A DNA stretch of 64,000 nt from Escherichia coli. GTDB taxonomy: Bacteria; Pseudomonadota; Gammaproteobacteria; Enterobacterales; Enterobacteriaceae. The position numbers and the translations under genes are program-made. How positions within the stretch are numbered: position 1 is the stretch's first letter; each line of letters begins with the position of its first letter. The notes beneath the pieces are model-generated. The model ran no database searches and was not told the DNA's origin. It worked only from the letters and a program-made list of their open reading frames with translations. Shown here one piece after another: positions 23,712 to 64,000 of this stretch. The DNA lies in assembly GCF_001677475.2 (NCBI RefSeq), contig NZ_CP015229.1; one strand, given 5' to 3'.

Positions 23712-23720
23712 GCTCTGTCC

Positions 23721-23753
23721 CAGCGCCGCCTCCTCAGAAAAGAGTCGGCGCTG
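23721..23753 (+). terminator. Putative gltBD terminator hairpin (approximate coordinates)
   Basis: Inverted repeat cagcgccg...cggcgctg starting about 10 bp after the gltD stop; the following T-run is weak. Confidence 0.4.
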
Positions 23754-23894
23754 AAATTCTCCTTTCTTTCTGGAAAGCGCCTCGCATAATCTGAAGAAAA
23801 CCAATGTAATACGCTCATCTGGATTGTTACCGGTAGATGCCCGGCGTATAGCTGATTCCATTATTCAACGCAGCGCCATATAAAGGGACAGATA

Positions 23895-39398: not shown

Positions 39399-40412
<1,014 letters not shown>

Positions 40413-40709
40413 TTACAATGACCACATCTCAAGAATGTGTAGTCACGCAAGTTTAGCGTTTATGCATTTAATTGCCGTAATCAGGAACCTAACTTACGTA
40501 ATTAACAGTCGCTTATGCATTAGCGCAACATTCCAACAGGTGGTGACAATATACCCTACCGTTCAGCCAAAACAACATCAATTTGATAACAATTAATTTA
40601 CTTTTAAGCAGAATTTGCATGCCGTGACGCAGGCATGTTTCTCAATAACGAAATTTGATAAAATCCCGCTCTTTCATAACATTATTTCAGCCTTCTTCAG
40701 GGCTGACTG

Positions 40710-40749
40710 TTTGCATAAAAATTCATCTGTATGCACAATAATGTTGTAT
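40710..40749 (+). promoter_or_regulatory. Tandem ARG boxes (ArgR autoregulatory operator) in the argR promoter (approximate coordinates)
   Basis: tttgcataaaaattcatctgtatgcacaataatgttgtat, about 25 to 60 bp upstream of the argR ATG; matches the ARG box consensus (TGAAT-N4-ATTCA type). Confidence 0.7.
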
Positions 40750-40768
40750 CAACCACCATATCGGGTGA

Positions 40769-41242
<474 letters not shown>

Positions 41243-41606
41243 TCTCTGCCCCGTCGCTTCTGGCGGCGGGGAAAATGTTGCTTATCCCTCTCAACCCCCT
41301 GCTTTCCCCTGCGATTAATTTAACGAATAGTGCGTTTTACTGCGACATGTCATTCACACAATGAATACATACGGTAAAAAAAGCACATTATGCAAAATTC
41401 ATTATCTAATTGAAAATACTAGAATTAAAAATAAATAACCGTGTTTTTAATTCTTTTTTGTTATTAAAATTCACATTTTTAATACTTAGTATCAACTGAA
41501 ACAGTTAGCGTGGTATTAATTAGTTCAATAATTAGTGTATACTTGATTTTGTGATAAGGGTCACGAAACAAAGACCCAGCAAAAAGATTATGTTGAGGTA
41601 AAAATC

Positions 41607-41870
41607 ATGAAAATCAAAACCACTGTTGCTGCATTAAGCGTACTTTCTGTTCTCTCTTTCAGTGCATTCGCTGCCGACTCCATTGATGCTGCACAAGCAC
41701 AAAATCGTGAAGCAATCGGGACCGTATCCGTAAGTGGTGTGGCGTCTTCGCCAATGGATATGCGTGAAATGCTGAACAAAAAAGCAGAAGAGAAAGGCGC
41801 AACGGCCTACCAGATTACGGAAGCTCGTAGCGGTGACACCTGGCACGCTACGGCTGAACTGTACAAATAA
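41607..41870 (+). CDS. yhcN: YhcN, small periplasmic stress-induced protein (DUF1471-like)
   Basis: ORF track 41607..41870(+), 87 aa with signal peptide; AT-rich upstream region. Confidence 0.88.
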   Translation: MKIKTTVAALSVLSVLSFSAFAADSIDAAQAQNREAIGTVSVSGVASSPMDMREMLNKKAEEKGATAYQITEARSGDTWHATAELYK

Positions 41871-41897
41871 ACCCTCATCGTCTTGTCCGACGATATT

Positions 41898-41922
41898 GCC
41901 CCCGGTTCGGGGGCTTTTTTTT
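41898..41922. terminator. Bidirectional terminator between convergent yhcN and yhcO (approximate coordinates)
   Basis: gcccccggttcgggggc hairpin followed by an 8-T run. Confidence 0.7.
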
Positions 41923-41925
41923 GCG

Positions 41926-42198
41926 CTAATGACGAACATTAAAACGCAAATGCCCTTCCAGCTCTTCCTCTGCCTCATCAAACAGCAATATTAACGCACC
42001 AAAACGGCGACGCGTTTTCTCTCCCAGATGAACAAATTCAATCTCAAGTGGTAGCGGCAGGACATCGTTCATTAACACATCCCATAGTGAGTCGAGATCG
42101 CGTACCTTATCTTTCGCCAGACCAAATGTTTGGCTAAAGTCACGATAAAAATCCTCCTGACTCTCAATCTCATCAAAATCAAAGGTATAAATATTCAT
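41926..42198 (-). CDS. yhcO: YhcO, barstar-like small protein
   Basis: ORF track 41926..42198(-), 90 aa. Confidence 0.88.
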
Positions 42199-42256
42199 CT
42201 GTTGCCACCGTCACGTTTCGCGGCGAGTTCTGCCGTGCATCGCTAAGTATAGCCAT

Positions 42257-42286
42257 GAAAAAACCGACGCTTTTGGCGTCGGTTTT
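42257..42286 (-). terminator. Rho-independent terminator of the aaeXAB operon (approximate coordinates)
   Basis: aaaaaccgacgcttttggcgtcggtttt hairpin immediately downstream of the aaeB stop on the minus strand. Confidence 0.6.
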
Positions 42287-42289
42287 GAC

Positions 42290-44257
42290 TTAACTATCGG
42301 TCAACGCATGTTGATACTTATGGAGCATCCCCGCCAGCCGATGTACCGGTTCCGTCACCTGCGGTGGCGCTTGCCAGATGCGTAGCTTTTCCTGGTAGAT
42401 TTCCAGTTCTTCCAGCAACTGGCCAAAGTACCGACGACGTTTATCATCGCTACGGGCAGATATCACATGGTCTGCTGTGCGGCGCATTTGTCGGTGAAAC
42501 GCCGATAAATCCTCGTTAACCGGGATCGGCGCATCACGCAGGCGCTGGTGCGCGATAATCATCGTCAGCGCCAGGCGAAATTTCGGCAAATCCCCTGGGA
42601 ACTTATTCATCAGCAAAAACAGCTGCTGATAAAGTGCCGGGAGGTGGTTCTCTTTACGACGTGCCACATTGGTAGTCATCGCGGAAACAGCGGCAGAAAC
42701 AAACTGATTAAGCAGTACACGTCCAGTCCTGTCGCGCGATTTATCCCGCACCAGCAAAATAACGGTGAACGCGAGCACACAGCCGACGATTTGCCCTAAT
42801 GCGCTGTCGAGAAACTGACTGAAATGGAAAGTCATCGGGTTATCCAGCACGATAATATTTATGGTGCTGGCCAGTGCCCCCATCGAGCCCAGTCGCCGTT
42901 TCTGTACTTCTATACCGAGGAAGAATCCCAGCACTGCCAGGCTAATGCACAGCAGCAACATGCTCTGTTGGGTATTAGGGATAATCACCAAAAAGTAGAG
43001 CAGCCCTAACGGCAGCGCGGCCAGCGTCCCGTAGATAAAGTCGATCGCCACCATGCGTGGATTCGGCAAACGCATTGCCAGTGACGTCACTACCGCAATC
43101 ATCACCATTGCACCACTGCCGGAAGTCCAGCCCGTCCACAGCCAGAAAAGCGTGCCCAGAATGCAGGAAAGTGTGGTTCGCCAGAAGTTAACCATCGCAT
43201 GATGACGTTCGGCTGACTCTACTTTGACTTCCGGTTCGCCTTGCAGGATCTCTTCTTCGGTGGCGTTGATTTTTGTGTTACTGATAACGCCGCGCTTGAG
43301 AAGCTGATAACGCGTTGCCGCCGCAACCCAGCTATAAATGGTGACAGGCGTTTCCCGTTCCCCGGTCCAGGCGATCACTCTCCGCAGGCGTTTGAGCTGC
43401 TTGTGGACGTCCTGCGCGGTTTCTACCGGCGTGTCAAAAAATTCGCGGAAAGTATCAGTGATCAATTCCGGGCGCGTATTCTGAATAAGATAAGTTTCGC
43501 AGGATTGGGTAATCAGCGTCAGCGATAGCGTATTGATCGCTTTTAAACGTCGATTGGCCCGCGCCCAGCGGGAAGATTCCATATTCAGGTTGCTGCGCAT
43601 GCCTTGTAGCGCCGTGGTGCGTCGCACCAGGTCGCCCCAGGCTTTATCGACAACTTCACCATCGCCATGCTTGATACAGAGTTGCATTAATTGATATTGC
43701 GCGACGAGCAAACTTTCCAGCTCTCGATCCACTTCTTGTTTGATCGATCGCGGAGAAAAAAGCAAATCAGCCATAATCGCACACACAATACCGATAACGA
43801 TCTCGCTACAACGTTCGACAGCAAACTGCGGCGTAAGCAATGGTTCCGGCTGAATGGTGATCACAATGATCAGCGCGGTATAACCGGCCAGCCCCCACGC
43901 ATACGAGTTTTCTATTCGTACCAGCGAGGATATCCAGGTGCAAAAACCGGCCCAGATACAGCACACCAGAATCATCAATAATGGTGCGCGGATCATCGCA
44001 ATAATGATCACCAGTCCGGCAATACAGCCAATAAATGTGCCGATGATGCGCAAAAAGCCACGATAGCGTATCGCGCCAGAGTACGGTTCACCTCCCGCAG
44101 CAAAGGCCGGACCGGCGGCAACAATCGCCGCTGTCAGTACCGCCCAGCGTGGCGTTTCCAGCTGGAAGTGAAAGCCAACAAACAGCGCCAGTACAATGGC
44201 GGTCGCCAGTTTTACCGCAAAGCGAATATGTTGGTTAGCAATGGAGAAAATACCCAT
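42290..44257 (-). CDS. aaeB: AaeB, p-hydroxybenzoic acid efflux pump subunit
   Basis: ORF track 42290..44257(-), 655 aa, polytopic membrane protein. Confidence 0.94.
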
Positions 44258-44262
44258 CGTGA

Positions 44263-45195
44263 TTAACCAAACTCACGCAGGCGATGGGCCATTTTACGGA
44301 AGAACGAATCCTGGCTTTCGTCGCGATCTTGTTTGCCAGTGACCACCACTGTAGCAGTGGTGCCCGCAGGCCAGATGTTCTCTTGCTGGTTGTCGAGACG
44401 AATACGAACCGGAACACGTTGCGCCAAACGCACCCATTCAAGGTTAGAGTCGATGGTCGCCATCCCTTTGTCGTCACGCGTGCTGCTGGCGTTGGTGACC
44501 CCAGCGGCAACACTATCAACAGTCCCTTTCAGCACTTTGTTACTGCCAAGCGGCGTGATCTCTGCACGATACCCAGGGCGCACCCCTTCCAGCTTAGTTT
44601 CTTCCATATAGGCCAGTACATAGAAAGAGTTCTGTTTCACCAGCGCAACCGCCGTTGATCCACGAGTAATAAACTCACCGGTATAGACGTTGAGGTTGGT
44701 CACCCAGCCATCTGCTGGCGCGCGGATCACCGTGCGTTCAAGATCCAGTTTTGCCAGATCGCGGGTCGCCTGCGCTTTCGCTAACTGATGCAGAACCGTT
44801 TGTAGTACGTTGTTGGCCTGGTCTATCTCTTCGCGAGACATCGCCTGTATGCCGAGACGGTTACGACGTCCGGCCTCCTGTCGTTTTTCCTGTGCCAGCA
44901 CTTGATAATAAGCAACATCGGCTTGCGCTTCCTCGAGCGCCTTTTGATAGCGTGGCTGGTCGATGGTGAACAGTACCTGTCCTTTTTTCACCAGCTGGTT
45001 ATCATGAACATTTACCTGAGTAATGAGTCCGGATACGTCCGGCGCGATCGCAACGACGTCGGCGCTAAAGCGTGCGTCACGCGTCCACGGGGATTCGGTG
45101 TAATAGACCCAGGCATTAAAAATTGCGATGAAGGCCAGAATGACTAATACGACCGTGATGGCCGTACGGGAGAATTTTCTTATTAGTGTTTTCAC
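44263..45195 (-). CDS. aaeA: AaeA, efflux pump membrane fusion subunit
   Basis: ORF track 44263..45195(-), 310 aa. Confidence 0.94.
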
Positions 45196-45202
45196 TTCAA
45201 CC

Positions 45203-45406
45203 TCAAACGAACAGTCGCGATATCAAATAAAACAAGCAGCAATAGAGCGCGGTGTTGAACAACGCCGGATGCCAGACAAAGTCGTAGATACCTGTTGGCA
45301 CAAGTACCCGGCGCACCAGCCAGAAAATCGCCAGTGATAAAAGCAATTCGAAAAATATCGGTGGGAAGGACAGCCCAAACACCACGATAACGGGAAACAG
45401 ACTCAT
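45203..45406 (-). CDS. aaeX: AaeX, small membrane protein
   Basis: ORF track 45203..45475(-) trimmed to [16 protein letters not shown]... (67 aa). Confidence 0.88.
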
Positions 45407-45588
45407 GTTGACCTTGGTTGTATAGAGAGAGCAGGCGTTATTATTTTCAGCATCTGTCGCCGCAGAGAAGGGCATGGAAAGCCGGGCGAGAGCAACATTG
45501 CTGTAGATTGATATTTAATATATTAGCGTAACTGTTATGCTGTTATCTATATTATGTGATCTAAATCACTTTTAAGTCAGAGTGAATA

Positions 45589-46518
45589 ATGGAACGACTA
45601 AAACGCATGTCGGTGTTTGCCAAAGTAGTTGAATTTGGCTCTTTTACCGCCGCCGCCAGACAGTTACAGATGAGCGTTTCGTCCATCAGTCAGACGGTGT
45701 CAAAACTGGAAGATGAGTTGCAGGTAAAGCTGTTAAACCGTAGCACACGCAGCATTGGCCTGACCGAAGCCGGTAGAATTTACTACCAGGGCTGCCGTCG
45801 GATGCTTCATGAAGTGCAGGATGTTCATGAGCAACTGTATGCCTTCAATAACACCCCCATCGGGACGCTACGCATTGGCTGTTCTTCAACTATGGCACAA
45901 AATGTTCTCGCCGGGCTGACAGCCAAAATGCTGAAAGAATACCCAGGTTTGAGCGTCAATCTGGTTACCGGAATTCCTGCCCCCGACCTGATTGCCGACG
46001 GTCTGGATGTGGTGATCCGCGTCGGCGCGTTGCAGGATTCCAGCCTGTTTTCCCGCCGTCTTGGCGCGATGCCAATGGTGGTCTGCGCCGCGAAAAGCTA
46101 TCTCACACAATACGGCATACCGGAAAAACCCGCCGATTTAAGTAGTCATTCATGGCTTGAATACAGCGTACGACCCGACAATGAATTTGAACTGATCGCA
46201 CCGGAAGGGATCTCGACTCGCCTGATCCCGCAAGGGAGATTTGTGACTAATGATCCGATGACGCTGGTGCGCTGGCTAACGGCGGGCGCCGGGATCGCCT
46301 ACGTGCCGCTGATGTGGGTGATCAACGAGATCAATCGCGGGGAGCTGGAGATCCTGCTGCCACGTTACCAGTCAGATCCACGCCCGGTTTATGCGTTATA
46401 TACCGAAAAAGATAAGCTGCCGCTGAAGGTACAAGTCGTGATCAACTCGCTAACGGATTATTTTGTTGAGGTCGGTAAATTGTTTCAGGAGATGCACGGG
46501 CGCGGGAAAGAGAAGTAA
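45589..46518 (+). CDS. aaeR: AaeR, LysR-family activator of aaeXAB
   Basis: ORF track 45589..46518(+), 309 aa; LysR HTH; divergent from aaeX. Confidence 0.93.
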   Translation: MERLKRMSVFAKVVEFGSFTAAARQLQMSVSSISQTVSKLEDELQVKLLNRSTRSIGLTEAGRIYYQGCRRMLHEVQDVHEQLYAFNNTPIGTLRIGCSSTMAQNVLAGLTAKMLKEYPGLSVNLVTGIPAPDLIADGLDVVIRVGALQDSSLFSRRLGAMPMVVCAAKSYLTQYGIPEKPADLSSHSWLEYSVRPDNEFELIAPEGISTRLIPQGRFVTNDPMTLVRWLTAGAGIAYVPLMWVINEINRGELEILLPRYQSDPRPVYALYTEKDKLPLKVQVVINSLTDYFVEVGKLFQEMHGRGKEK

Positions 46519-46560
46519 TTCATATTGTACTGTTACGTTGTACAAACCTGTGCCAACGGG

Positions 46561-46594
46561 TTCCCCTCACCCTAACCCCAGAGGGGCGAGGGGA
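46561..46594. repeat. Imperfect palindromic intergenic repeat (ttcccctcaccc...ggggcgagggga), copy 2
   Basis: Read directly from the aaeR-tldD spacer; related to the element at about 28712. Confidence 0.5.
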
Positions 46595-46645
46595 CCGTTC
46601 GTGCACGTAGAAGGATTAATTATCCTTCTGAAAATACTGAAATTA

Positions 46646-48106
<1,461 letters not shown>

Positions 48107-48135
48107 TTAGTTACTGCAGTAGAGGATTTTTTACG

Positions 48136-48173
48136 GCTGCCGGATGCAGCGTGAACGCCCTATCCGGCCTACG
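48136..48173. repeat. REP element between tldD and yhdP (approximate coordinates)
   Basis: gctgccggatgcagcgtgaacgccctatccggcctacg closely matches the E. coli REP consensus. Confidence 0.7.
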
Positions 48174-48246
48174 GTTATGTTCTGGCTCGTTGGCCTTTGG
48201 CAACGATTATCATATGAGATTGGGGCAATTACGCGCCCTCGTCAAA

Positions 48247-51200
48247 TCATTGCGCTTTTTCTTTACGCGGTTGGCGCAACACTTCGTTGATTTGCGGATC
48301 GTCCAGCGGACCCGAAATGTGATAGCGCAAAATGGAGACTTTGCTCCACAGCGGCCCCAGCACTTTACTGGCGGCAAACACTGCCGCGCCAACAATAGGG
48401 TTAACCGCAAAAGCCGCAGCCACGCCCACCGTCGCAGAAATCTCTGGTGCGACAACCGCTTCCATATTCAGGTCGCGACGTACCAGATTTACCGACCCTT
48501 TCATGGCGATATCCGCTTCCAGGCCATCCACCAGCGTGTCGTCGGTGTGCATAACGCCGTCTTTAATCCACGCGGTGCTGCGAATGGAGTCAAAATAGAA
48601 CCCTTCGCCAAAAGTGTCTCTGAAATCAAAACGCAGCTTACGCATCAGGGCATCTACGCTCAATAAGCGCAGCAATTGCCCGGCATGTCCGGTGCTGATT
48701 TCGGTAATTTCGCCTTTGCCCAGTTGAGTATGAATGATGCCATTCAACGACGCCTCATCCGGCTGCCACGGTGCTTTGCGCCAGTGTAAATCGTAATCCA
48801 CATTAAATGACGACTGGCGTATGGGCGTCGTGACACCAAAAAATTCTGCGGCGGCATCAATTTTCTGCCCGCGCAGTTTTCCTTTCAGCGAGGTACGTTC
48901 ATTCCCCGGATTATTAACCCATTCACCATCGGCAGTAAGCCGCGAGAAACCAGTATCAATCAGTCCATTGGTCAGCGTTAACGTATCGCCAGAAATGGTG
49001 ATATCACTGTCAATGCGACCGAATTTTTGCCCCCAGAACCAGCACTCTGTGCATCGTATTTGTGCGTCCGGCCAGCCACGGAAGTTAATGCGCTCCGTTG
49101 TCGGGAAAGGTGATGACGGCGTTGAATCACCACGAGTTTTCGCCACGCTCGGGTTGTAATAAAGATATTTGATATTCGCCAGCCACGGCGCGTTATTACG
49201 CATCGCTAGCGTGGCGTTGATTTCACGCCCTTGCGCCTCCACCTGGGTGCCATTTGCCGTCGGTTGCGAAACAATACTCAGGTTATTCCATTGCTGATTT
49301 CCCAGTGACAACATAGGCGTACGTAACGTTATGTGTTGTGGGAAACTCGCTGCACCACCGACACTCTCCGCCGCGCCTTTCTGGAACAGGGCCAGCCACT
49401 CGGCACCATTCATCGGCGGCATATTGAGTTCAACGCCACTTTGTTCCGGCAACGGCGGGAGCGTTTTACTGTCTGCCGCCCAAATAGCACGATCGAGCGT
49501 CAGCTTTTGACCAAGCAACCAGCGGCTATTGAAATGGTTATCCGCACCAGCCTGTCCGGTTAACTCAAAGCTGTTGAGATTGCCATCAACCTTAACGTTT
49601 ACCGCTAGTGGTTCACCCGCAGGTTTGGCTAACGGTGAAGGTAAGTGACTGCTCACATTCTTCAGATCGCCGTTCAGCTCTACGTTATAGGTCGCGCCAG
49701 CATGATAAGGCAGATCAATGCCCACTTTACCATCCCACGCCACGCTGCCACTCAATGCTTCGTTCACCGCTTCAGGCAGAACGCCGGTTTTCGCCGGTTG
49801 CCAGTTACCGTTGAGGTTTACCGCTACCTGGTAGGCTTTTGCCCCTTCTTTGGTGGAAAAATCCACGTTCAACGGCTGATTAAACCAGCTTGCTGTCAGT
49901 GGTTCACTTTGCAGATCGCCATTGATAAAGCTGAATTTACCGCTCAAATTTTTCAGGGTGCTGTCGAGTGGTTTGATAAACAGACTGTTATTACGCAGCG
50001 TCACTTCACCTTTCGCGGTTACCAGCTCGCCGTTCAGCGGGATATCAAGATGTAAGCGAGCATTCACATCGCCGTCGAGCTGGAGTTCTTGCAGGGTCGC
50101 ACCCAGAGAATCTTTCAGCGGTGTCTCATCAAAGTAAGGGCCAACGGCTTTACCCGGACCTTTAATGTCAGCGTCAATCAGCAGTTTTTCTTTTGAGTAG
50201 TCAGGGATCACTGCTGTGAGATTACTCGCGCGCACGCCGCCCAGATTAACGCCATCGGTTTTCATCCATAAACCGTCGTTAATAAAGTCCAGTTCAATAT
50301 CAAGGTTAGTTAATGCAGGCCAGTCCGGCTGGAAGGCAAACTTCGCGTTGCGCAGCGGCACCAGCACTTCAAACTGACCTTCGTTGTGTTTATAGGGGAA
50401 GAGTTGCGGATTGCCACCATAAACCAGCGTCGCGTTATCCGCTTCACCGCCCTGAATCGCGCCACTTAAGTAATCAACCAGGTCTTTACCCATCAAGTTT
50501 TCCGGGAAATAGCGCCAGGCTTGTGAACCATCATCGGTACTGATGCCAGCCAGAATACCCAGCCAGGGTTCATCGTTAGCAGGTTGCAGGTAACGAAAAC
50601 CGCCGCGCGCATGGACGGCTTTGGCTTTAACGTCAATATTACGCCCATCCAGCTGGAAACCTTTGTCATTGTTCAGCCAGCTTATAGTTGCCTGGCCGTC
50701 GGCGATTTCCAGTGGCGCACGGAATACCGTTTCGTAAGGCATCTTTGCCTGCTTCATCGACGCAGTAAGCAAACCATTTTCAACGCTGCCGGAAAGCGTC
50801 CCGGAGAAGTGTTCCGCACCCGGTAATAATTTCCATTGCTTCCAGGCCAGATCGCTCCACGATGCCTGAAAACGGGTCTTGTCTGCCGCCTGAAGCGGGA
50901 TATCCAGCGCCAGAGTGTTAATCTTGCCGCTCGGTTGTGTGGAGCGCCAAACATCACCCAGTGCAGGTGAAAGTTTCGCGGCCAGCGGGCGTATGCCCTC
51001 CAGGCCTGCCAGCTCCAGATTACTGGCGCGAATCCGGAGTTCGTCACTGCGTTTATTGTCTTTGCCGCCAACGTCCTGTTCCGGTATCCAGGCCAGCGTC
51101 AATGCTCCGCTCGGCCAGGGTTTGCCGTCCATCGTGATCCGTGTATCGGGAATAGAGAACTGCCAGCCCGGATTTTCACGCGTAATATGCGCGGTCAGAT

Positions 51201-52047
51201 TATCCACCGACAGCGTATGCGTTTGCTTCTCGCCCAACCAGCTGGCACCGCCCTGTTTCAGCCAGACGTCACCGCCGGTTACATCGCCTTTGTCGATCGT
51301 CATCCAGCCTTCAAGGGAGAACTGTGCCGTTTCCAGCGCAATATTGTCCTGCATCCATTTACCGAGCCACGGCTTCAGGTCGATGTCATCCGCCTGGAGC
51401 CAGACGCGACCATTGCTTAACAACCCCTCATCATCGCGCAAATCCATGCGCACCTGCATCACGCCGTGCTGTCCGGTAAGGCTGGAGAGGCTTACCAGAC
51501 CTTCCGCACGGTGTCGACGTGGATCGTTCAGCCAGGTGAGTTGTGGGATCGCCAGCTCGGCGCGCTGACCGGATGGCGTCAGGAAACTGACTTCACTGTC
51601 GCGGAGATCGAAATGGTCAAATTGACGAAGAAACAGATCGCTGATGTGACTGGCTTCCAGACTGTCATCACTACCACCGCTGGTGATAGGAGTGTTGGTG
51701 CGAAAACGCAGCTGCCAGAAAGTGAGGTCGCGAAACTGCCAGCGCATATGTAACAGGCTCTGCCAGACATCCAGCGCCAGAGTAACGCGTTTAACCGAAA
51801 ATTCGCCGCCATCTTTTAGTTCTGCACGGATGTCGTGTGCTTCAAGCGTCGGGCCAAAATTCTGCCAGCTGGCTGAGAGCTGACTGGCTTCTACCGGCAT
51901 GCCAGTCGCGGATTCTATTTTGTTGAGGATTTCCGGACGCCAGGCGTCAAGATGCGGTAAAGCAATACGCAGGCCGCTAACCAGCAGGGCAGCGATCACA
52001 ACGAACGCGGCTCCAGTAAGCAGTAAAATCCCCGGCAATCGCCTCAC
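48247..52047 (-). CDS. yhdP: YhdP, AsmA-like large envelope protein (phospholipid transport)
   Basis: ORF track 48247..52047(-), 1266 aa with N-terminal TM anchor. Confidence 0.94.
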   Translation of the reverse strand: MRRLPGILLLTGAAFVVIAALLVSGLRIALPHLDAWRPEILNKIESATGMPVEASQLSASWQNFGPTLEAHDIRAELKDGGEFSVKRVTLALDVWQSLLHMRWQFRDLTFWQLRFRTNTPITSGGSDDSLEASHISDLFLRQFDHFDLRDSEVSFLTPSGQRAELAIPQLTWLNDPRRHRAEGLVSLSSLTGQHGVMQVRMDLRDDEGLLSNGRVWLQADDIDLKPWLGKWMQDNIALETAQFSLEGWMTIDKGDVTGGDVWLKQGGASWLGEKQTHTLSVDNLTAHITRENPGWQFSIPDTRITMDGKPWPSGALTLAWIPEQDVGGKDNKRSDELRIRASNLELAGLEGIRPLAAKLSPALGDVWRSTQPSGKINTLALDIPLQAADKTRFQASWSDLAWKQWKLLPGAEHFSGTLSGSVENGLLTASMKQAKMPYETVFRAPLEIADGQATISWLNNDKGFQLDGRNIDVKAKAVHARGGFRYLQPANDEPWLGILAGISTDDGSQAWRYFPENLMGKDLVDYLSGAIQGGEADNATLVYGGNPQLFPYKHNEGQFEVLVPLRNAKFAFQPDWPALTNLDIELDFINDGLWMKTDGVNLGGVRASNLTAVIPDYSKEKLLIDADIKGPGKAVGPYFDETPLKDSLGATLQELQLDGDVNARLHLDIPLNGELVTAKGEVTLRNNSLFIKPLDSTLKNLSGKFSFINGDLQSEPLTASWFNQPLNVDFSTKEGAKAYQVAVNLNGNWQPAKTGVLPEAVNEALSGSVAWDGKVGIDLPYHAGATYNVELNGDLKNVSSHLPSPLAKPAGEPLAVNVKVDGNLNSFELTGQAGADNHFNSRWLLGQKLTLDRAIWAADSKTLPPLPEQSGVELNMPPMNGAEWLALFQKGAAESVGGAASFPQHITLRTPMLSLGNQQWNNLSIVSQPTANGTQVEAQGREINATLAMRNNAPWLANIKYLYYNPSVAKTRGDSTPSSPFPTTERINFRGWPDAQIRCTECWFWGQKFGRIDSDITISGDTLTLTNGLIDTGFSRLTADGEWVNNPGNERTSLKGKLRGQKIDAAAEFFGVTTPIRQSSFNVDYDLHWRKAPWQPDEASLNGIIHTQLGKGEITEISTGHAGQLLRLLSVDALMRKLRFDFRDTFGEGFYFDSIRSTAWIKDGVMHTDDTLVDGLEADIAMKGSVNLVRRDLNMEAVVAPEISATVGVAAAFAVNPIVGAAVFAASKVLGPLWSKVSILRYHISGPLDDPQINEVLRQPRKEKAQ

Positions 52048-57180: not shown

Positions 57181-59121
57181 TTAAACCGAGTATCTTTGTG
57201 AATATTTTTTCACGTTAGTATCAAGTGGCTGTGAGGACGCGAAAAAATCCCCTTGCCCACCTGTAACACCGCGCTGAATCAGGGTCTGCCACTCGCTTCG
57301 CGAACGCACGCCGGTGGCGTAAACCTGGGTGCTGGTCCCGGAGCAGGCTTCCACCAGGCTTTGAACCAGCAGCTGGTTCTCCGTTCGCTTCTCAATGTTT
57401 CTGACCAGCCCCGGATGGAGCTTGAGTAACTCAACATTAAGTTCTTTGATCCAACTGGTGCTAACCAGCGTCAAACCAGCCTGGTTGACGGCTACCCGTA
57501 CCCCTAAAGCATTCACTAAACGAATAACAGGTTGTAAACGACTGATATGTTGACCTACATCGGCCTCTGCAAGTTCAATAATTATGCGTTTTCGTTGTGA
57601 TTTTTCACATTGCATTAACGTATCGCGCAGCCAACGCTGAAAACGCGGGCGAATCAGCGACTCAACGGTAACCTGAATCGCCAGATTTTCCTCCGGCCAG
57701 TAACGCAATAGTGGAATCAGACGGCTGATTTGCAGGCGGTCATACTCTTCCGATAAGCCAAACTGCAAGACCATCGGCATATACTCCGCCGAGCTAACCT
57801 CTTCGTTACCATCGAAGATGCGGCACATGAGTTCGCGATGATGAACCTGACCTTCGCGAGTAACCGCCGGTTTTTGATAAAGGCGCGGGCCGCCGCGACT
57901 GAGCATTTGCTCGATAAGCGTACGCCAGCGAACATTACCGCGTCCTTTTTCAGGCAACGAGTCATCGTAAATAGCCCAGCTATTGCCGCCCTGCAATCCC
58001 GCATTACGCGTGGCAGACTCTGCATGTTCCATTACCTGCTCGGTATCCTGACCACTACGCCAGGCACAGATACCAATGTGGATCATATCGTCGCGATCGA
58101 GCATTTTATTGTTCGGCAAGGTATCGACGGCTTTGATTAACTGACTGGCTATGCTCTCAGCCTCTTTTAACGTCCGGTGGGGCAACAGCGCAGCAAAATC
58201 ACTGCGGTGGTAACGCGCCAGCAGTGCGCCAGGGTAGCGCATCATAAATGTCGACAGCAGATTCGTCAGAGAGAAGAACTGTTCTTCAACCTGGCTGTGC
58301 CCCCAGGTATCACTCAACATATTGAAATCCGGCAGACGAATCATCATCACGATCCCGTGGGTACCTACTTTCTCTTGATCTTCCAGTAACGTTGCTAACT
58401 GATTATCGAAAAAGAGTCGGTTATTGAGGCCGGTTTTCATGTCCTGGGCGGCATAAGAGCGGATCAGCGTATCAAGACGGCTGTGTTGTTCGCGTGCGTT
58501 CTGAATTTCACGAAGCAGCGTATCCAGCGCACTGCTGGTTCTGGGCGGCCATTCATAGATGGTTCCCAACACATTAGAGCCACGCTCACCGTTTAAGATA
58601 CGAGTAGCCCGGGTTTCCAGCAATTCTTGCCCGGCAAGTTGCCGTTGTAACCAGCGTACCGCCAGGAAGAGCATAAGAATGATAAAGCCAATCGCCCCCG
58701 TGAGCGGCGCGGTGGTCATCAACGAATGGAAATAGTTGCCCATCGGATCCTGATAAACCAGACGCAGCGACATCCCCGGATGCTTTATCAACGGAACGCT
58801 CAGTTCGCGAAACAGATCGCTGGTGCCAACCGGACGATAACTACCATTTCTGGCGAGGGTATAAACCTGTTTATCACCATGCAGCAGGTCTACACGAACG
58901 ATATCTGCTGACACCATTAATTCGGTAATTTGTGGCCTTAATGCGCTGAAGTCATTCGACACAAGGTGGGTATCAATCGCCGTCGCCACCGCCTGAACGC
59001 GATGACTAAACTTATACTGAATGGCGTTGTAGAAACTTAGCGAACAGCCCAGCAAAGTCACAAAAATTGTTAACCCGGTGAGCAGCGTAACAAAGGCCGA
59101 AAATTTCGTCGTTAATCTCAT
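57181..59121 (-). CDS. csrD: CsrD, GGDEF/EAL-domain regulator of CsrB/CsrC sRNA turnover
   Basis: ORF track 57181..59121(-), 646 aa with N-terminal TM segments and degenerate GGDEF and EAL regions. Confidence 0.93.
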   Translation of the reverse strand: MRLTTKFSAFVTLLTGLTIFVTLLGCSLSFYNAIQYKFSHRVQAVATAIDTHLVSNDFSALRPQITELMVSADIVRVDLLHGDKQVYTLARNGSYRPVGTSDLFRELSVPLIKHPGMSLRLVYQDPMGNYFHSLMTTAPLTGAIGFIILMLFLAVRWLQRQLAGQELLETRATRILNGERGSNVLGTIYEWPPRTSSALDTLLREIQNAREQHSRLDTLIRSYAAQDMKTGLNNRLFFDNQLATLLEDQEKVGTHGIVMMIRLPDFNMLSDTWGHSQVEEQFFSLTNLLSTFMMRYPGALLARYHRSDFAALLPHRTLKEAESIASQLIKAVDTLPNNKMLDRDDMIHIGICAWRSGQDTEQVMEHAESATRNAGLQGGNSWAIYDDSLPEKGRGNVRWRTLIEQMLSRGGPRLYQKPAVTREGQVHHRELMCRIFDGNEEVSSAEYMPMVLQFGLSEEYDRLQISRLIPLLRYWPEENLAIQVTVESLIRPRFQRWLRDTLMQCEKSQRKRIIIELAEADVGQHISRLQPVIRLVNALGVRVAVNQAGLTLVSTSWIKELNVELLKLHPGLVRNIEKRTENQLLVQSLVEACSGTSTQVYATGVRSRSEWQTLIQRGVTGGQGDFFASSQPLDTNVKKYSQRYSV

Positions 59122-59272: not shown

Positions 59273-60247
59273 ATGCAGGCGTTACTTTTAGAACAGCAGG
59301 ACGGCAAAACTCTCGCATCAGTACAGACTCTGGACGAAAGTCGCCTGCCGGAGGGCGATGTCACGGTTGATGTTCACTGGTCGAGCCTGAACTACAAAGA
59401 TGCGCTGGCAATTACCGGTAAGGGAAAAATCATCCGTAATTTTCCGATGATTCCTGGGATCGATTTTGCCGGAACTGTACGCACCAGCGAAGATCCGCGT
59501 TTTCATGCCGGTCAGGAGGTGTTACTCACTGGCTGGGGCGTTGGTGAAAACCACTGGGGGGGGCTGGCGGAACAGGCGCGAGTGAAAGGTGACTGGCTGG
59601 TTGCCATGCCGCAAGGGCTGGACGCACGTCAAGCAATGATTATCGGTACTGCCGGTTTTACCGCCATGCTGTGTGTGATGGCGCTGGAAGATGCCGGTGT
59701 TCGCCCGCAGGATGGGGAGATTGTCGTGACGGGTGCCAGTGGTGGCGTCGGCAGTACCGCCGTGGCGCTGCTGCATAAGTTGGGTTATCAGGTCGTTGCC
59801 GTTTCTGGTCGCGAAAGTACCCATGAATATCTGAAAAGTTTAGGAGCCAGCCGTATTCTCTCTCGCGATGAGTTTACCGAATCCCGTCCTCTGGAAAAAC
59901 AACTCTGGGCTGGGGCAATTGACACCGTTGGCGACAAAGTGCTGGCGAAAGTGCTAGCGCAAATGAATTACGGCGGCTGCGTGGCGGCCTGTGGTCTGGC
60001 GGGTGGTTTTACTCTGCCAACCACGGTCATGCCATTTATTCTGCGTAATGTCCGTTTACAGGGGGTGGATTCAGTGATGACGCCACCAGCACGCCGCGCA
60101 CAAGCCTGGCAGCGACTGGTCGCCGATTTACCGGAATCATTCTATACCCAGGTGGCACAAGAGATATATCTGGCAGAGGCACCGAAGTTTGCCGAGGCCA
60201 TCATTAATAACCAGATCCAGGGTCGCACGCTGGTGAAGGTTAACTAA
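59273..60247 (+). CDS. acuI: AcuI (YhdH), acrylyl-CoA reductase (MDR family)
   Basis: ORF track 59273..60247(+), 324 aa; NAD(P)-binding GASGGVG motif. Confidence 0.93.
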   Translation: MQALLLEQQDGKTLASVQTLDESRLPEGDVTVDVHWSSLNYKDALAITGKGKIIRNFPMIPGIDFAGTVRTSEDPRFHAGQEVLLTGWGVGENHWGGLAEQARVKGDWLVAMPQGLDARQAMIIGTAGFTAMLCVMALEDAGVRPQDGEIVVTGASGGVGSTAVALLHKLGYQVVAVSGRESTHEYLKSLGASRILSRDEFTESRPLEKQLWAGAIDTVGDKVLAKVLAQMNYGGCVAACGLAGGFTLPTTVMPFILRNVRLQGVDSVMTPPARRAQAWQRLVADLPESFYTQVAQEIYLAEAPKFAEAIINNQIQGRTLVKVN

Positions 60248-61224
60248 CCATTTAGCAAGGATTAATAAGAGAGGGAACTCATTTTGAAATCATTATTCAA
60301 TCGGTTAACGGGAAAAGCGGTTAGCCGGACAGCTTTCGTCGAACATCTTGGTCATGAAGTTGTACAACATCATCCAAACTGGAAAGTCATGATTTCGACA
60401 GACCATACATTGATGCGCATTGAAACTCCACTAAACAGCCATTATTGATACGCCTCCGTCGCCTGTTAGGTTTATGGTGCTTTGCCTGGGCGACGCTACG
60501 CTTAACCTGTTACTGATTTCTGGTACCATGGGGTGAATAATCTGATTTTATTTGCCTACAAATTAACCACTCGAACGTATTTGATGCTGAGCATTGTCAG
60601 ACGGTTGATTTTGCGTGCTTTAGCATTCACATCTATCCAGACGATGAAGTGAAAATTGCGTAATCCTCAGCAACCGCTGCGTAATGTCGTCTATCTTGTC
60701 GCGATCCTGGCATCCCTACATTATTTGTGGTCTGTGAAGATTATCTCATTGCAGCCCCTCATCTTCGCAGGGCTGGCTTTACAGCTTTTAGCCTTACGTT
60801 ATAAGAAGTTCCGTCGATGATGGCGCTAATTTCGTGAGTTGTGCGGCTTGTTGCAAATTACACGGTGTTGAAGGTTATTTACATGTTAGCTGTTGATTAT
60901 CTTCCCTGATAAGACCAGTATTTAGCTGCCAATTGCTACGAAATCGTTATAATGTGCGACCTCGTTCTCCCTGACGCAGTTTTTGCGCTGCGGAAAAGGT
61001 GACATTGGCGCAACGAAGGTATATTTTGTTTTTTGCCGGAGGATAGCAGCAGATCGCTGCACAATGTCCGTCAAGTCTAACATTGACACTCTGGGGCAAA
61101 ATAGACCGGCGTCCCGGCCTGCTGGAATTTATCGCTATGCATACAGCTGTCGGGGCATACGCTTTACAGACGGCGGTGAAACGCCTGTCACAATCACACT
61201 AAACAAAGAGTACGGAACCCACTC

Positions 61225-61695
61225 ATGGATATTCGTAAGATTAAAAAACTGATCGAGCTGGTTGAAGAATCAGGCATCTCCGAACTGGAAATTTCTGAAG
61301 GCGAAGAGTCAGTACGCATTAGCCGTGCAGCTCCTGCCGCAAGTTTCCCTGTGATGCAACAAGCTTACGCTGCACCAATGATGCAGCAGCCAGCTCAATC
61401 TAACGCAGCCGCTCCGGCGACCGTTCCTTCCATGGAAGCGCCAGCAGCAGCGGAAATCAGTGGTCACATCGTACGTTCCCCGATGGTTGGTACTTTCTAC
61501 CGCACCCCAAGCCCGGACGCAAAAGCGTTCATCGAAGTGGGTCAGAAAGTAAACGTGGGCGATACCCTGTGCATCGTTGAAGCCATGAAAATGATGAACC
61601 AGATCGAAGCGGACAAATCCGGTACCGTGAAAGCAATTCTGGTCGAAAGTGGACAACCGGTAGAATTTGACGAGCCGCTGGTCGTCATCGAGTAA
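61225..61695 (+). CDS. accB: AccB, biotin carboxyl carrier protein
   Basis: ORF track 61225..61695(+), 156 aa; biotinylation motif [10 protein letters not shown]. Confidence 0.97.
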
Positions 61696-61705
61696 CGAGG
61701 CGAAC

Positions 61706-63055
61706 ATGCTGGATAAAATTGTTATTGCCAACCGCGGCGAGATTGCATTGCGTATTCTTCGTGCCTGTAAAGAACTGGGCATCAAGACTGTCGCTGTGCA
61801 CTCCAGCGCGGATCGCGATCTAAAACACGTATTACTGGCAGATGAAACGGTCTGTATCGGCCCTGCTCCGTCAGTAAAAAGTTATCTGAACATCCCGGCA
61901 ATCATCAGCGCCGCTGAAATCACCGGCGCAGTAGCAATCCATCCGGGTTACGGCTTCCTCTCCGAGAACGCCAACTTTGCCGAGCAGGTTGAACGCTCCG
62001 GCTTTATCTTCATCGGCCCGAAAGCAGAAACCATTCGCCTGATGGGCGACAAAGTATCCGCAATCGCGGCGATGAAAAAAGCGGGCGTCCCTTGCGTACC
62101 GGGTTCTGACGGCCCGCTGGGCGACGATATGGATAAAAACCGTGCCATTGCTAAACGCATTGGTTATCCGGTGATTATCAAAGCCTCCGGCGGCGGCGGT
62201 GGTCGCGGTATGCGCGTAGTGCGCGGCGACGCTGAACTGGCACAATCCATCTCCATGACCCGTGCGGAAGCGAAAGCTGCTTTCAGCAACGATATGGTTT
62301 ACATGGAGAAATACCTGGAAAATCCTCGCCACGTCGAGATTCAGGTACTGGCTGACGGTCAGGGCAACGCTATCTATCTGGCGGAACGTGACTGCTCCAT
62401 GCAGCGCCGCCACCAGAAAGTGGTCGAAGAAGCACCAGCACCGGGCATTACCCCGGAACTGCGTCGCTACATCGGCGAACGTTGCGCTAAAGCGTGTGTT
62501 GATATCGGCTATCGCGGTGCAGGTACTTTCGAGTTCCTGTTCGAAAACGGCGAGTTCTATTTCATCGAAATGAACACCCGTATTCAGGTAGAACACCCGG
62601 TTACAGAAATGATCACCGGCGTTGACCTGATCAAAGAACAGCTGCGTATCGCTGCCGGTCAACCGCTGTCGATCAAGCAAGAAGAAGTTCACGTTCGCGG
62701 CCATGCGGTGGAATGTCGTATCAACGCCGAAGATCCGAACACCTTCCTGCCAAGTCCGGGCAAAATCACCCGTTTCCACGCACCTGGCGGTTTTGGCGTG
62801 CGTTGGGAGTCTCATATCTACGCGGGCTACACCGTACCGCCGTACTATGACTCAATGATCGGTAAGCTGATTTGCTACGGTGAAAACCGTGATGTGGCGA
62901 TTGCCCGCATGAAGAATGCGCTGCAGGAGCTGATCATCGACGGTATCAAAACCAACGTTGATCTGCAGATCCGCATCATGAATGACGAGAACTTCCAGCA
63001 TGGTGGCACTAACATCCACTATCTGGAGAAAAAACTCGGTCTTCAGGAAAAATAA
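61706..63055 (+). CDS. accC: AccC, biotin carboxylase
   Basis: ORF track 61667..63055(+) trimmed to [14 protein letters not shown]... (449 aa). Confidence 0.97.
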
Positions 63056-63101
63056 TTTGTGACGCGCGGTGTTTTCATCGCGCTTAGCAAAGAACGTAAT
63101 C

Positions 63102-63136
63102 AACGCCGGGCCTGTTAACGCTGCCCGGCGTTTTTA
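63102..63136 (+). terminator. accBC rho-independent terminator (approximate coordinates)
   Basis: aacgccgggcctgttaacgctgcccggcgtt hairpin followed by tttttatt, about 45 bp after the accC stop. Confidence 0.65.
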
Positions 63137-63146
63137 TTGCCGTTAG

Positions 63147-64000
63147 CTAACGGTAGCCTGCAATTTCCGCTTTCAACGCGCTCATTTCAGCATCGCCATC
63201 AACAATTCCCAGCTCAAAGCAGTATTTCTTTGTTTCCCCTGGCTCTATAAAGGGCAGACGCCCCTGCGCTCGTTCTTTATCACGACCGTCAGGAAAACTA
63301 TTGCTGACCTCCAGCCCCATAACATATTCACCCGCGCCTAAATTTTTCCACTGGATAAAGTTGGGTAGCTGCATGGTGTCGAATTTCTCGTAAATTCCCC
63401 ACCCCAGTTCAGCGTTCACCAGCGCAATTTTACTCATCCCCTGACTGTCGCTATTCAAGGTGAGATAGTAAACCTGCTCGTCAAAACCGGGCTGTGGGGT
63501 ACAAATCTCCAGATGACTGGTTAACCCTTCCGCCGCATGCGGAGTTCGTGGCGTTACGCTTTTAGCCGACAGCAAGATTTCTGCCTGTGGCGATAATAAA
63601 GGCCAGCCGTAATTAAAGTGATAAAGAATTTGCAGCGGCTGGCGGGTGAAACCATGATTAGTCACCTCGTCTTCAATGCGCAGCACATTTTCGCCATAAC
63701 GGCAGCGAATGGTCCTTTCCAGCGTCAGATTTTCACCGAACAATCGCGTTTCCCGTACTTTGCCATTGATGACAAATTCAATGCCGTCGTCGGTCCGTTC
63801 TGTGCGATACCCCACCTCTTCTGCTGGAGTCGCAGCCAAACGCCCATGTAACCCCAGCGTTTCTCCTTCATCCTCACAGGGCGTGCCAATGTAGCTAAGT
63901 CCGCAGGTAGTCAGTAACCCCGCGTAAAAGCTACGTAAAAACCCGTTGCCCTGAGACTCGAAAAAAGCGGGGGCGACAATGCCGTTGGGGGTGATAAAAG
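63147..64000 (-). CDS. Hypothetical protein, possibly galactose-mutarotase-like/DUF4432-type; partial, with the 5' end beyond the window
   Basis: Track ORF 63147..63839(-) is the tail of a longer frame: I translated the minus strand by hand through to position 64000 and found no stop. Not a K-12 gene at this position (K-12 has yhdT/panF on the plus strand after accC). Family assignment is from motif impression only. Confidence 0.6.
   Translation of the reverse strand, partial: FITPNGIVAPAFFESQGNGFLRSFYAGLLTTCGLSYIGTPCEDEGETLGLHGRLAATPAEEVGYRTERTDDGIEFVINGKVRETRLFGENLTLERTIRCRYGENVLRIEDEVTNHGFTRQPLQILYHFNYGWPLLSPQAEILLSAKSVTPRTPHAAEGLTSHLEICTPQPGFDEQVYYLTLNSDSQGMSKIALVNAELGWGIYEKFDTMQLPNFIQWKNLGAGEYVMGLEVSNSFPDGRDKERAQGRLPFIEPGETKKYCFELGIVDGDAEMSALKAEIAGYR

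Follow-up and report, generated by a model that had tools for sequence, protein, structure and literature searches.

The right-hand end of the 64,000-nucleotide stretch of Escherichia coli DNA analysed here (the window) raises two questions: which gene faces accC at this position, and what does its product do? The left side of the junction is accC itself, a core gene for biotin carboxylase, which we placed at 61706..63055 on the plus strand from ORF translation, collinearity with K-12 and annotation in relatives, and which forms the left flank of the island described below. A preliminary description of this DNA had reported beyond it a minus-strand ORF, convergent with accC and running without a stop to the edge of the window. 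Reverse-strand translation of 63147-63998 confirmed the frame, giving 284 codons with a single terminal stop and no internal one; the stop codon lies at 63147, the frame runs on unbroken up to base 64000, and the peptide that had been quoted from it, HGFTRQPLQILYHFNYGWPLL, is present in the translation. The convergent arrangement was also borne out, as accC ends on the plus strand at 63055 and the stop of the ORF is at 63147, leaving a spacer of 91 nt (63056-63146) between the two.

The visible frame comprises codons 66-348 and the stop codon, that is, the 3′ 82% of a gene on the minus strand at 63147..64000. The fragment matches the Pfam family DUF4432 (PF14486) with an E value of 8.3e-91 over model positions 40-303 of 304, and a full-length homologue of 348 amino acids matches it with an E value of 2.2e-104, so the initial guess of a DUF4432-type protein was right. 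The translated fragment shows 98% identity to WP_000787055.1, an annotated E. coli protein of 348 aa, over residues 66-348 of the latter, and RefSeq names the gene in relatives ‘aldose 1-epimerase family protein’. Because of the Pfam match together with the 98% identity to an annotated protein, the frame at 63147-64000 is a genuine gene and not a chance ORF. Its first 65 codons, like the remainder of the island, lie past the window edge at base 64000. We also considered a reading of the visible gene as low in G+C and rejected it, since its value is 50.8% as compared with 51.9% for the whole window; the low part (42-45%) corresponds to ABC transporter genes outside the window.

Comparison with K-12 defined where the additional DNA begins. 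The window is collinear with K-12 positions 3340000-3407266 at 98.2-98.8% identity, the last of these corresponding to window position 63055, and similarity to K-12 breaks off exactly at the accC stop codon (TAA). In K-12, yhdT begins 108 nt past accC and the DUF4432 gene is absent, so that the description of a non-K-12 gene immediately after accC was accurate; the ORF does not stand in front of yhdT and panF in K-12, and homology searches did not lead to some other well-characterised family. In a carrier strain, the far boundary of the island lies at the yhdT start codon, where the alignment with K-12 restarts. Since similarity ends at the stop codon of accC and resumes at the start codon of yhdT, the alignment identifies the island as a substitute for everything that separates the two genes in K-12, the accC terminator of that strain included.

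Departures from K-12 were also seen elsewhere in the window. At 23713-23767 yhcG follows gltD almost directly, and a 7-kb K-12 segment (3360618-3367698) carrying gltF, the fimbrial-type genes yhcA-yhcF and IS5 is missing; the gltD-yhcG junction found in the window is intact in many complete E. coli genomes. In the tldD-yhdP intergenic region (48133-48196) two K-12 alignment blocks overlap by ∼64 bases in the window and skip ∼210 K-12 bases (3392133-3392344), an alignment pattern that suggests a repeat-element difference from K-12.

The spacer at 63056..63146, a feature assigned to neither strand, was characterized by K-12 alignment, a terminator scan and RNA folding. It is island-side sequence in place of the K-12 accC-yhdT intergenic region and shows 0 differences in 91 positions from strain 2016C-3878. 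Hairpins are formed at 63064-63083 and 63102-63132, and the second is followed by TTTTTATT, giving a GC-rich hairpin plus T-run at 63102-63139; the terminator scan of the spacer returned a match at 63117-63132. The RNA fold has an energy of -41.8 kcal/mol, with z scores of -5.08 on the plus strand and -2.73 on the minus strand. As it precedes the T-run, the second hairpin is likely to be the accC terminator, and it possibly acts in both directions. The preliminary description had referred to an accC terminator at this place, and a hairpin with a T-run is indeed present, but it is not the accC terminator of K-12: the entire K-12 accC-yhdT spacer has been replaced and the sequence differs. An Rfam scan of 60200-64000 gave nothing credible. 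Upstream of accB, at 60928-61027 on the plus strand, the Yersinia sRNA Ysr190 gave an Rfam match of 25.3 bits (gathering threshold 66, E 0.74), which is most likely due to chance.

The region between accC and yhdT turned out to be already known, as a published study has described the island and characterised its function: it is the ‘EcN tag cluster’, a D-tagatose utilisation island of 8.5 kb located between accC and yhdT and not found in K-12 (Ha et al. 2022, iScience 25:105655; PMC9720028). D-tagatose induces all six genes of its operon more than 40-fold, and in E. coli Nissle 1917 growth on this sugar is lost when the operon, or the kinase alone, is deleted (PMC9720028). A plasmid-borne operon suffices for growth of K-12, B and W strains on D-tagatose, for which pfkA is required (PMC9720028). 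The published route consists of ABC import, 6-phosphorylation by the adjacent PfkB-type tagatose kinase, 1-phosphorylation by the host PfkA and cleavage by tagatose-bisphosphate aldolase; a second kinase of the cluster is induced only ∼2-fold on tagatose and is no substitute for the first (PMC9720028). Among phylogroup B2 genomes 93% have the cluster, as do 73% of those of phylogroup F, and it is rare in other phylogroups (PMC9720028), and the same region is listed as GR23 accC..yhdT in ExPEC strains in a 2026 genome paper (PMC12928451). Both the standing of the tag island as a lineage marker (B2, F) and its interpretation as a nutritional trait of extraintestinal pathogenic E. coli, adherent-invasive E. 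coli and the probiotic Nissle 1917 are thus already published; the island is also relevant to the use of D-tagatose as a food sweetener.

Within this cluster the window gene corresponds to ECOLIN_RS18670, its orthologue, with which it shares position, orientation and Pfam family. In otherwise similar α-proteobacterial clusters the place of ECOLIN_RS18670 is taken by tagE, although the two protein sequences are highly divergent (PMC9720028). This arrangement admits a reading in which the DUF4432 protein is a non-homologous stand-in for the tagatose-6-phosphate 4-epimerase TagE of Sinorhizobium and Agrobacterium and converts tagatose 6-phosphate to fructose 6-phosphate. Such a role conflicts with the requirement of tagatose growth for pfkA and with the presence in the cluster of its own bisphosphate aldolase, because both would be needless if fructose 6-phosphate were made directly. 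In addition, 4-epimerase chemistry needs a metal- or NAD-dependent mechanism, and no 4-epimerase chemistry is known for the mutarotase-type β-sandwich that is predicted for the protein (see below). We consider a 4-epimerase very improbable.

To establish the content of the island beyond the window edge we relied on relatives. Strain 2016C-3878 and SYNB1934, a Nissle derivative, have the same gene order: on the minus strand after accC come the DUF4432 gene, a sugar kinase, the permease, ATPase and binding protein of an ABC transporter, and a class II tagatose-bisphosphate aldolase; past the aldolase the plus strand carries a DeoR/GlpR regulator and then the second of the two sugar kinases, after which come yhdT and panF. 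Against the NCBIfam tagatose kinase model, whose cut-off is 420, the first kinase reaches 413.9 bits, and the aldolase passes the NCBIfam tagatose-bisphosphate aldolase models. Among NCBIfam families the binding protein of the transporter is closest to RbsB, which suggests that the tag operon may be analogous to the rbs operon with its transporter, kinase and pyranase RbsD. The stop codon of the kinase and the start codon of the DUF4432 gene overlap as ATGA, implying coupled translation of the two.

Of 5426 complete E. coli genomes, 1421 (∼26%) contain the DUF4432 gene, at 96.3-98.6% nucleotide identity, and in all but two of these carriers (1419/1421) 80% or more of the 8.68-kb island is present. 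The comparison of the accC-yhdT junction across E. coli that had been proposed therefore agrees with the earlier suggestion of an accessory sugar island at accC, of which only the last gene is visible here: in every relative examined the DUF4432 gene is terminal, and yhdT-panF resume beyond the island. The strain from which the window derives carries at least the island edge and almost certainly the whole island. From identity and context combined, we can be nearly certain that the frame encodes the final 283 of the 348 residues of a DUF4432 protein whose gene is the last in the six-gene D-tagatose operon. Taken together, the reading of this gene as the terminal DUF4432 gene of the published tag island, with a proposed mutarotase role, is the best overall explanation of the data, and we assign it a probability of roughly 0.8.

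Some related sequences were noted in addition. In the part of the island outside the window (26947-28744 of L001), a divergently transcribed DeoR/GlpR regulator is accompanied by a second PfkB kinase, which scores 343 bits on the tagatose kinase model and is under the cut-off of 420. One NCBI record (P0017) describes a 493-aa fusion of PfkB and DUF4432; this could be a frameshift or annotation artefact, given that the kinase stop and the DUF4432 start overlap. An aldolase gene 86.8% identical to that of the island lies at 50944-51877 of a conjugative E. coli plasmid (LR890578.1, 88.7 kb, in PLSDB), and an aldolase gene of the same 86.8% identity at 57221-58154 of NZ_JBTZOT010000002.1, a 66-kb record classed as a plasmid in the E. 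coli collection. The rest of the island is absent from both of these records.

We also asked of what nature and age the island might be. Among its annotated genes in 2016C-3878 and SYNB1934 there is no integrase, tRNA or IS. Apart from echoes of the two paralogous kinase genes, a search for repeats revealed neither direct nor inverted ones at the flanks, and no plasmid in PLSDB carries the island. On these grounds a mobile-element reading was rejected. The window gene diverges by 1.5% from the allele of 2016C-3878 and by 2.3% from that of the Nissle lineage, while the flanking core genes diverge by 1.0-2.3%. A recent transfer of the island is unsupported by these values. With the island gene no more and no less divergent than the core genes beside it, the sequences fit long residence of the island at the accC-yhdT locus rather than recent transfer.

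The window copy is distinct. Over residues 66-348 its allele differs by at least 1.4% from every allele in the 5426 complete genomes, and the SYNB1934 allele is 97.6-97.7% identical to the window fragment at the nucleotide level. Identity of the window to these genomes is never above 98.6-98.8%, for the core and the island gene alike; the limit for the window as a whole was measured on 40000-48000 and 62900-64000. The terminal 99-mer of the window (63902-64000) likewise had no exact match in the species-representative genome collection. As no complete genome exceeds 98.6-98.8%, these identities place the window in an E. coli-like lineage that is missing from the collection of 5426 genomes, and by the same comparison the difference of the window allele is lineage divergence and not the mark of another gene.

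How the copy has evolved bears on whether it is needed at all. The 13 nucleotide differences between the window gene and its nearest allele amount to 6 synonymous and 6 non-synonymous codon changes, and the ratios of non-synonymous to synonymous changed codons were 6:6 and 8:12, with none at an invariant residue (the invariant residues are described below). With about one synonymous per non-synonymous change and the invariant residues untouched, the pattern suggests that selection on the DUF4432 gene has been maintained. One could also take the fairly high share of non-synonymous changes (6:6 and 8:12) as the sign of a dispensable or decaying passenger that has no part in tagatose use, the window copy perhaps lying in a truncated remnant of the island. 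It is known that the homologue is annotated as a pseudogene in one B2 strain and that two Shigella boydii strains have only parts of the tag cluster (PMC9720028), and the database contains truncated protein clusters (P0011, P0012 and P0019), of which many may derive from short contigs. However, the 284 visible codons contain neither a stop nor a frameshift, the invariant residues are free of substitutions, the gene is annotated as intact across the listed genomes, and the full island is kept in 1419 of the 1421 carriers. The more than 40-fold induction on tagatose (PMC9720028) likewise argues against a passenger, and we regard this possibility as quite unlikely.

The preliminary description had called the product galactose-mutarotase-like and had proposed a search against aldose 1-epimerase; the fold upheld the first impression by structural comparison (Foldseek), while the Aldose_epim HMM was not matched. 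In a Pfam scan with E values up to 10 only DUF4432 was listed, Aldose_epim (PF01263) remaining unmatched, and no NCBIfam model matches the DUF4432 protein. With hhalign, an alignment of 48 DUF4432 sequences gave nothing against E. coli GalM alone, and against a four-sequence alignment of GalM, YphB, YihR and YeaD every alignment had a probability below 1%. A profile search of PDB sequences, again with E up to 10, had 3TY1 as its sole match. An AlphaFold model built from the 48 homologues has a mean pLDDT of 94.7, and its best structural match is likewise 3TY1 (TM 0.91, rmsd 1.7 Å; Foldseek). Next in the Foldseek results come the galactose mutarotases 4BZE, 1L7K and 1SNZ and related proteins, with E values of 1e-10 to 1e-13 and TM scores of ∼0.56-0.63, and the yeast hexose-6-phosphate mutarotase 2CIQ is also among the structural matches of the model.

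Three residues, H116 (in LHGR), H192 (in YHFNYG) and E295 (in GLEV/GLEP), are invariant in the 48 homologues down to 44% identity. The catalytic His/His/Glu of E. coli GalM are H104, H175 and E309, as counted on the K-12 sequence. In the low-confidence profile alignments (<1% probability) H192 pairs with GalM H175 and E295 with GalM E309, and the pairing of H116 with GalM H104 is made only on the shared LHG motif (LHGG in GalM). As the sequence methods do not link the family to Aldose_epim, the equivalence of these residues with the catalytic residues of GalM is a candidate one only.

The genomic settings of more distant relatives provide a further view of function. Homologues that are 44-57% identical are found in a variety of sugar clusters, in which their neighbours include PfkB kinases, ribose-type ABC transporters and a lyxose-isomerase-like protein; a fucose-isomerase-like enzyme with an FGGY kinase and a class II aldolase; or an SDR resembling rhamnose or glucose 1-dehydrogenase together with a lactonase. 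Mutarotases act as accessory enzymes in sugar clusters of this kind. The K-12 yph operon likewise has YphB after an ABC transporter, and in the yih cluster YihR is accompanied by a kinase, an aldolase and a DeoR-type regulator.

The chemistry of the substrate is also of importance. In water D-tagatose is mostly a pyranose, and in a ketohexopyranose the ring oxygen is O6; 6-phosphorylation therefore needs the furanose or the open chain. Based on the predicted fold, the invariant His/His/Glu, the coupling to the kinase, the sugar clusters of the homologues and this O6 chemistry, we propose that the DUF4432 protein may be a cofactor-free sugar mutarotase with a GalM-like His/His/Glu acid-base site. 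It would speed the ring opening and re-closure of imported D-tagatose, so that the predominant pyranose, with O6 locked in the ring, would pass to the furanose or an open form whose 6-OH is exposed to the kinase, and the protein would in this respect be the functional analogue of RbsD. We put forward this pyranose-to-furanose role as a tentative one with a little less than an even chance of being correct. The stricter statement, that the protein is a mutarotase dedicated to a ketohexose, a ‘D-tagatose pyranase’ that couples ABC import of tagatopyranose to the 6-kinase, is held slightly more cautiously still. Several points speak against a mutarotase role: sequence methods (Pfam, NCBIfam and hhalign) do not bridge to Aldose_epim, tagatose may mutarotate so quickly by itself that the gene is not needed, and the homologue is an annotated pseudogene in one B2 strain (PMC9720028).

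The same structural matches and the same coupling to the kinase could instead indicate an enzyme acting one step later. A phosphosugar mutarotase placed after the kinase would interconvert the α and β furanose anomers of D-tagatose 6-phosphate and so feed PfkA, much as YeaD/Ymr099c act on hexose 6-phosphates. Membership of the same fold superfamily, with the yeast structure 2CIQ among the matches, the translational coupling through ATGA and the dependence of the next step on the host PfkA, which could be anomer-selective, are all consistent with it. On the other hand, the distant homologues adjoin transporters with free-sugar isomerases or aldose dehydrogenases, and the structures of free-sugar mutarotases match the model at least as well as 2CIQ does. 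We therefore think a phosphosugar mutarotase rather unlikely. If the mutarotase acting on free D-tagatose is the correct reading, the DUF4432 family, whose Pfam label is still ‘domain of unknown function’ and of which a structure has been solved, would gain its first biochemical function, and the members of the family in Firmicutes sugar clusters would be rare-sugar ring-form converters.

It is instructive to compare the protein with the systems it most resembles. The solved structure, 3TY1, is KPN_04629 from Klebsiella pneumoniae, a structural-genomics entry described as a ‘putative aldose 1-epimerase’ and also a DUF4432 member; it is matched with E values of 2e-32 by the single protein and 6e-57 by the profile, and shares the HG(R/K), YH.N.G and GxEP motifs, but is only 27% identical. 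We found no published function for 3TY1, which is thus a structure without biochemistry, and literature searches on DUF4432, and on tagatose kinase together with a mutarotase, returned nothing relevant. With GalM (PF01263, EC 5.1.3.3; L. lactis 1L7K and E. coli GalM) the protein has the β-sandwich fold in common, and its candidate His/His/Glu triad occurs in the same chain order, although there is no significant sequence similarity and the TM score is only ∼0.6; the substrate of GalM is an aldose, whereas that of the DUF4432 protein is presumably a ketohexose. YihR, the sulfoquinovose mutarotase of the yih cluster, may follow the same logic as that proposed here, being encoded with a transporter, a kinase, an aldolase and a DeoR-type regulator, but it is a classical Aldose_epim protein and not a DUF4432 member. 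RbsD, the D-ribose pyranase of the rbs operon, is likewise outside DUF4432 and unrelated in fold, yet it would represent the same proposed logic, that of a ring-form converter encoded together with a transporter and a PfkB kinase.
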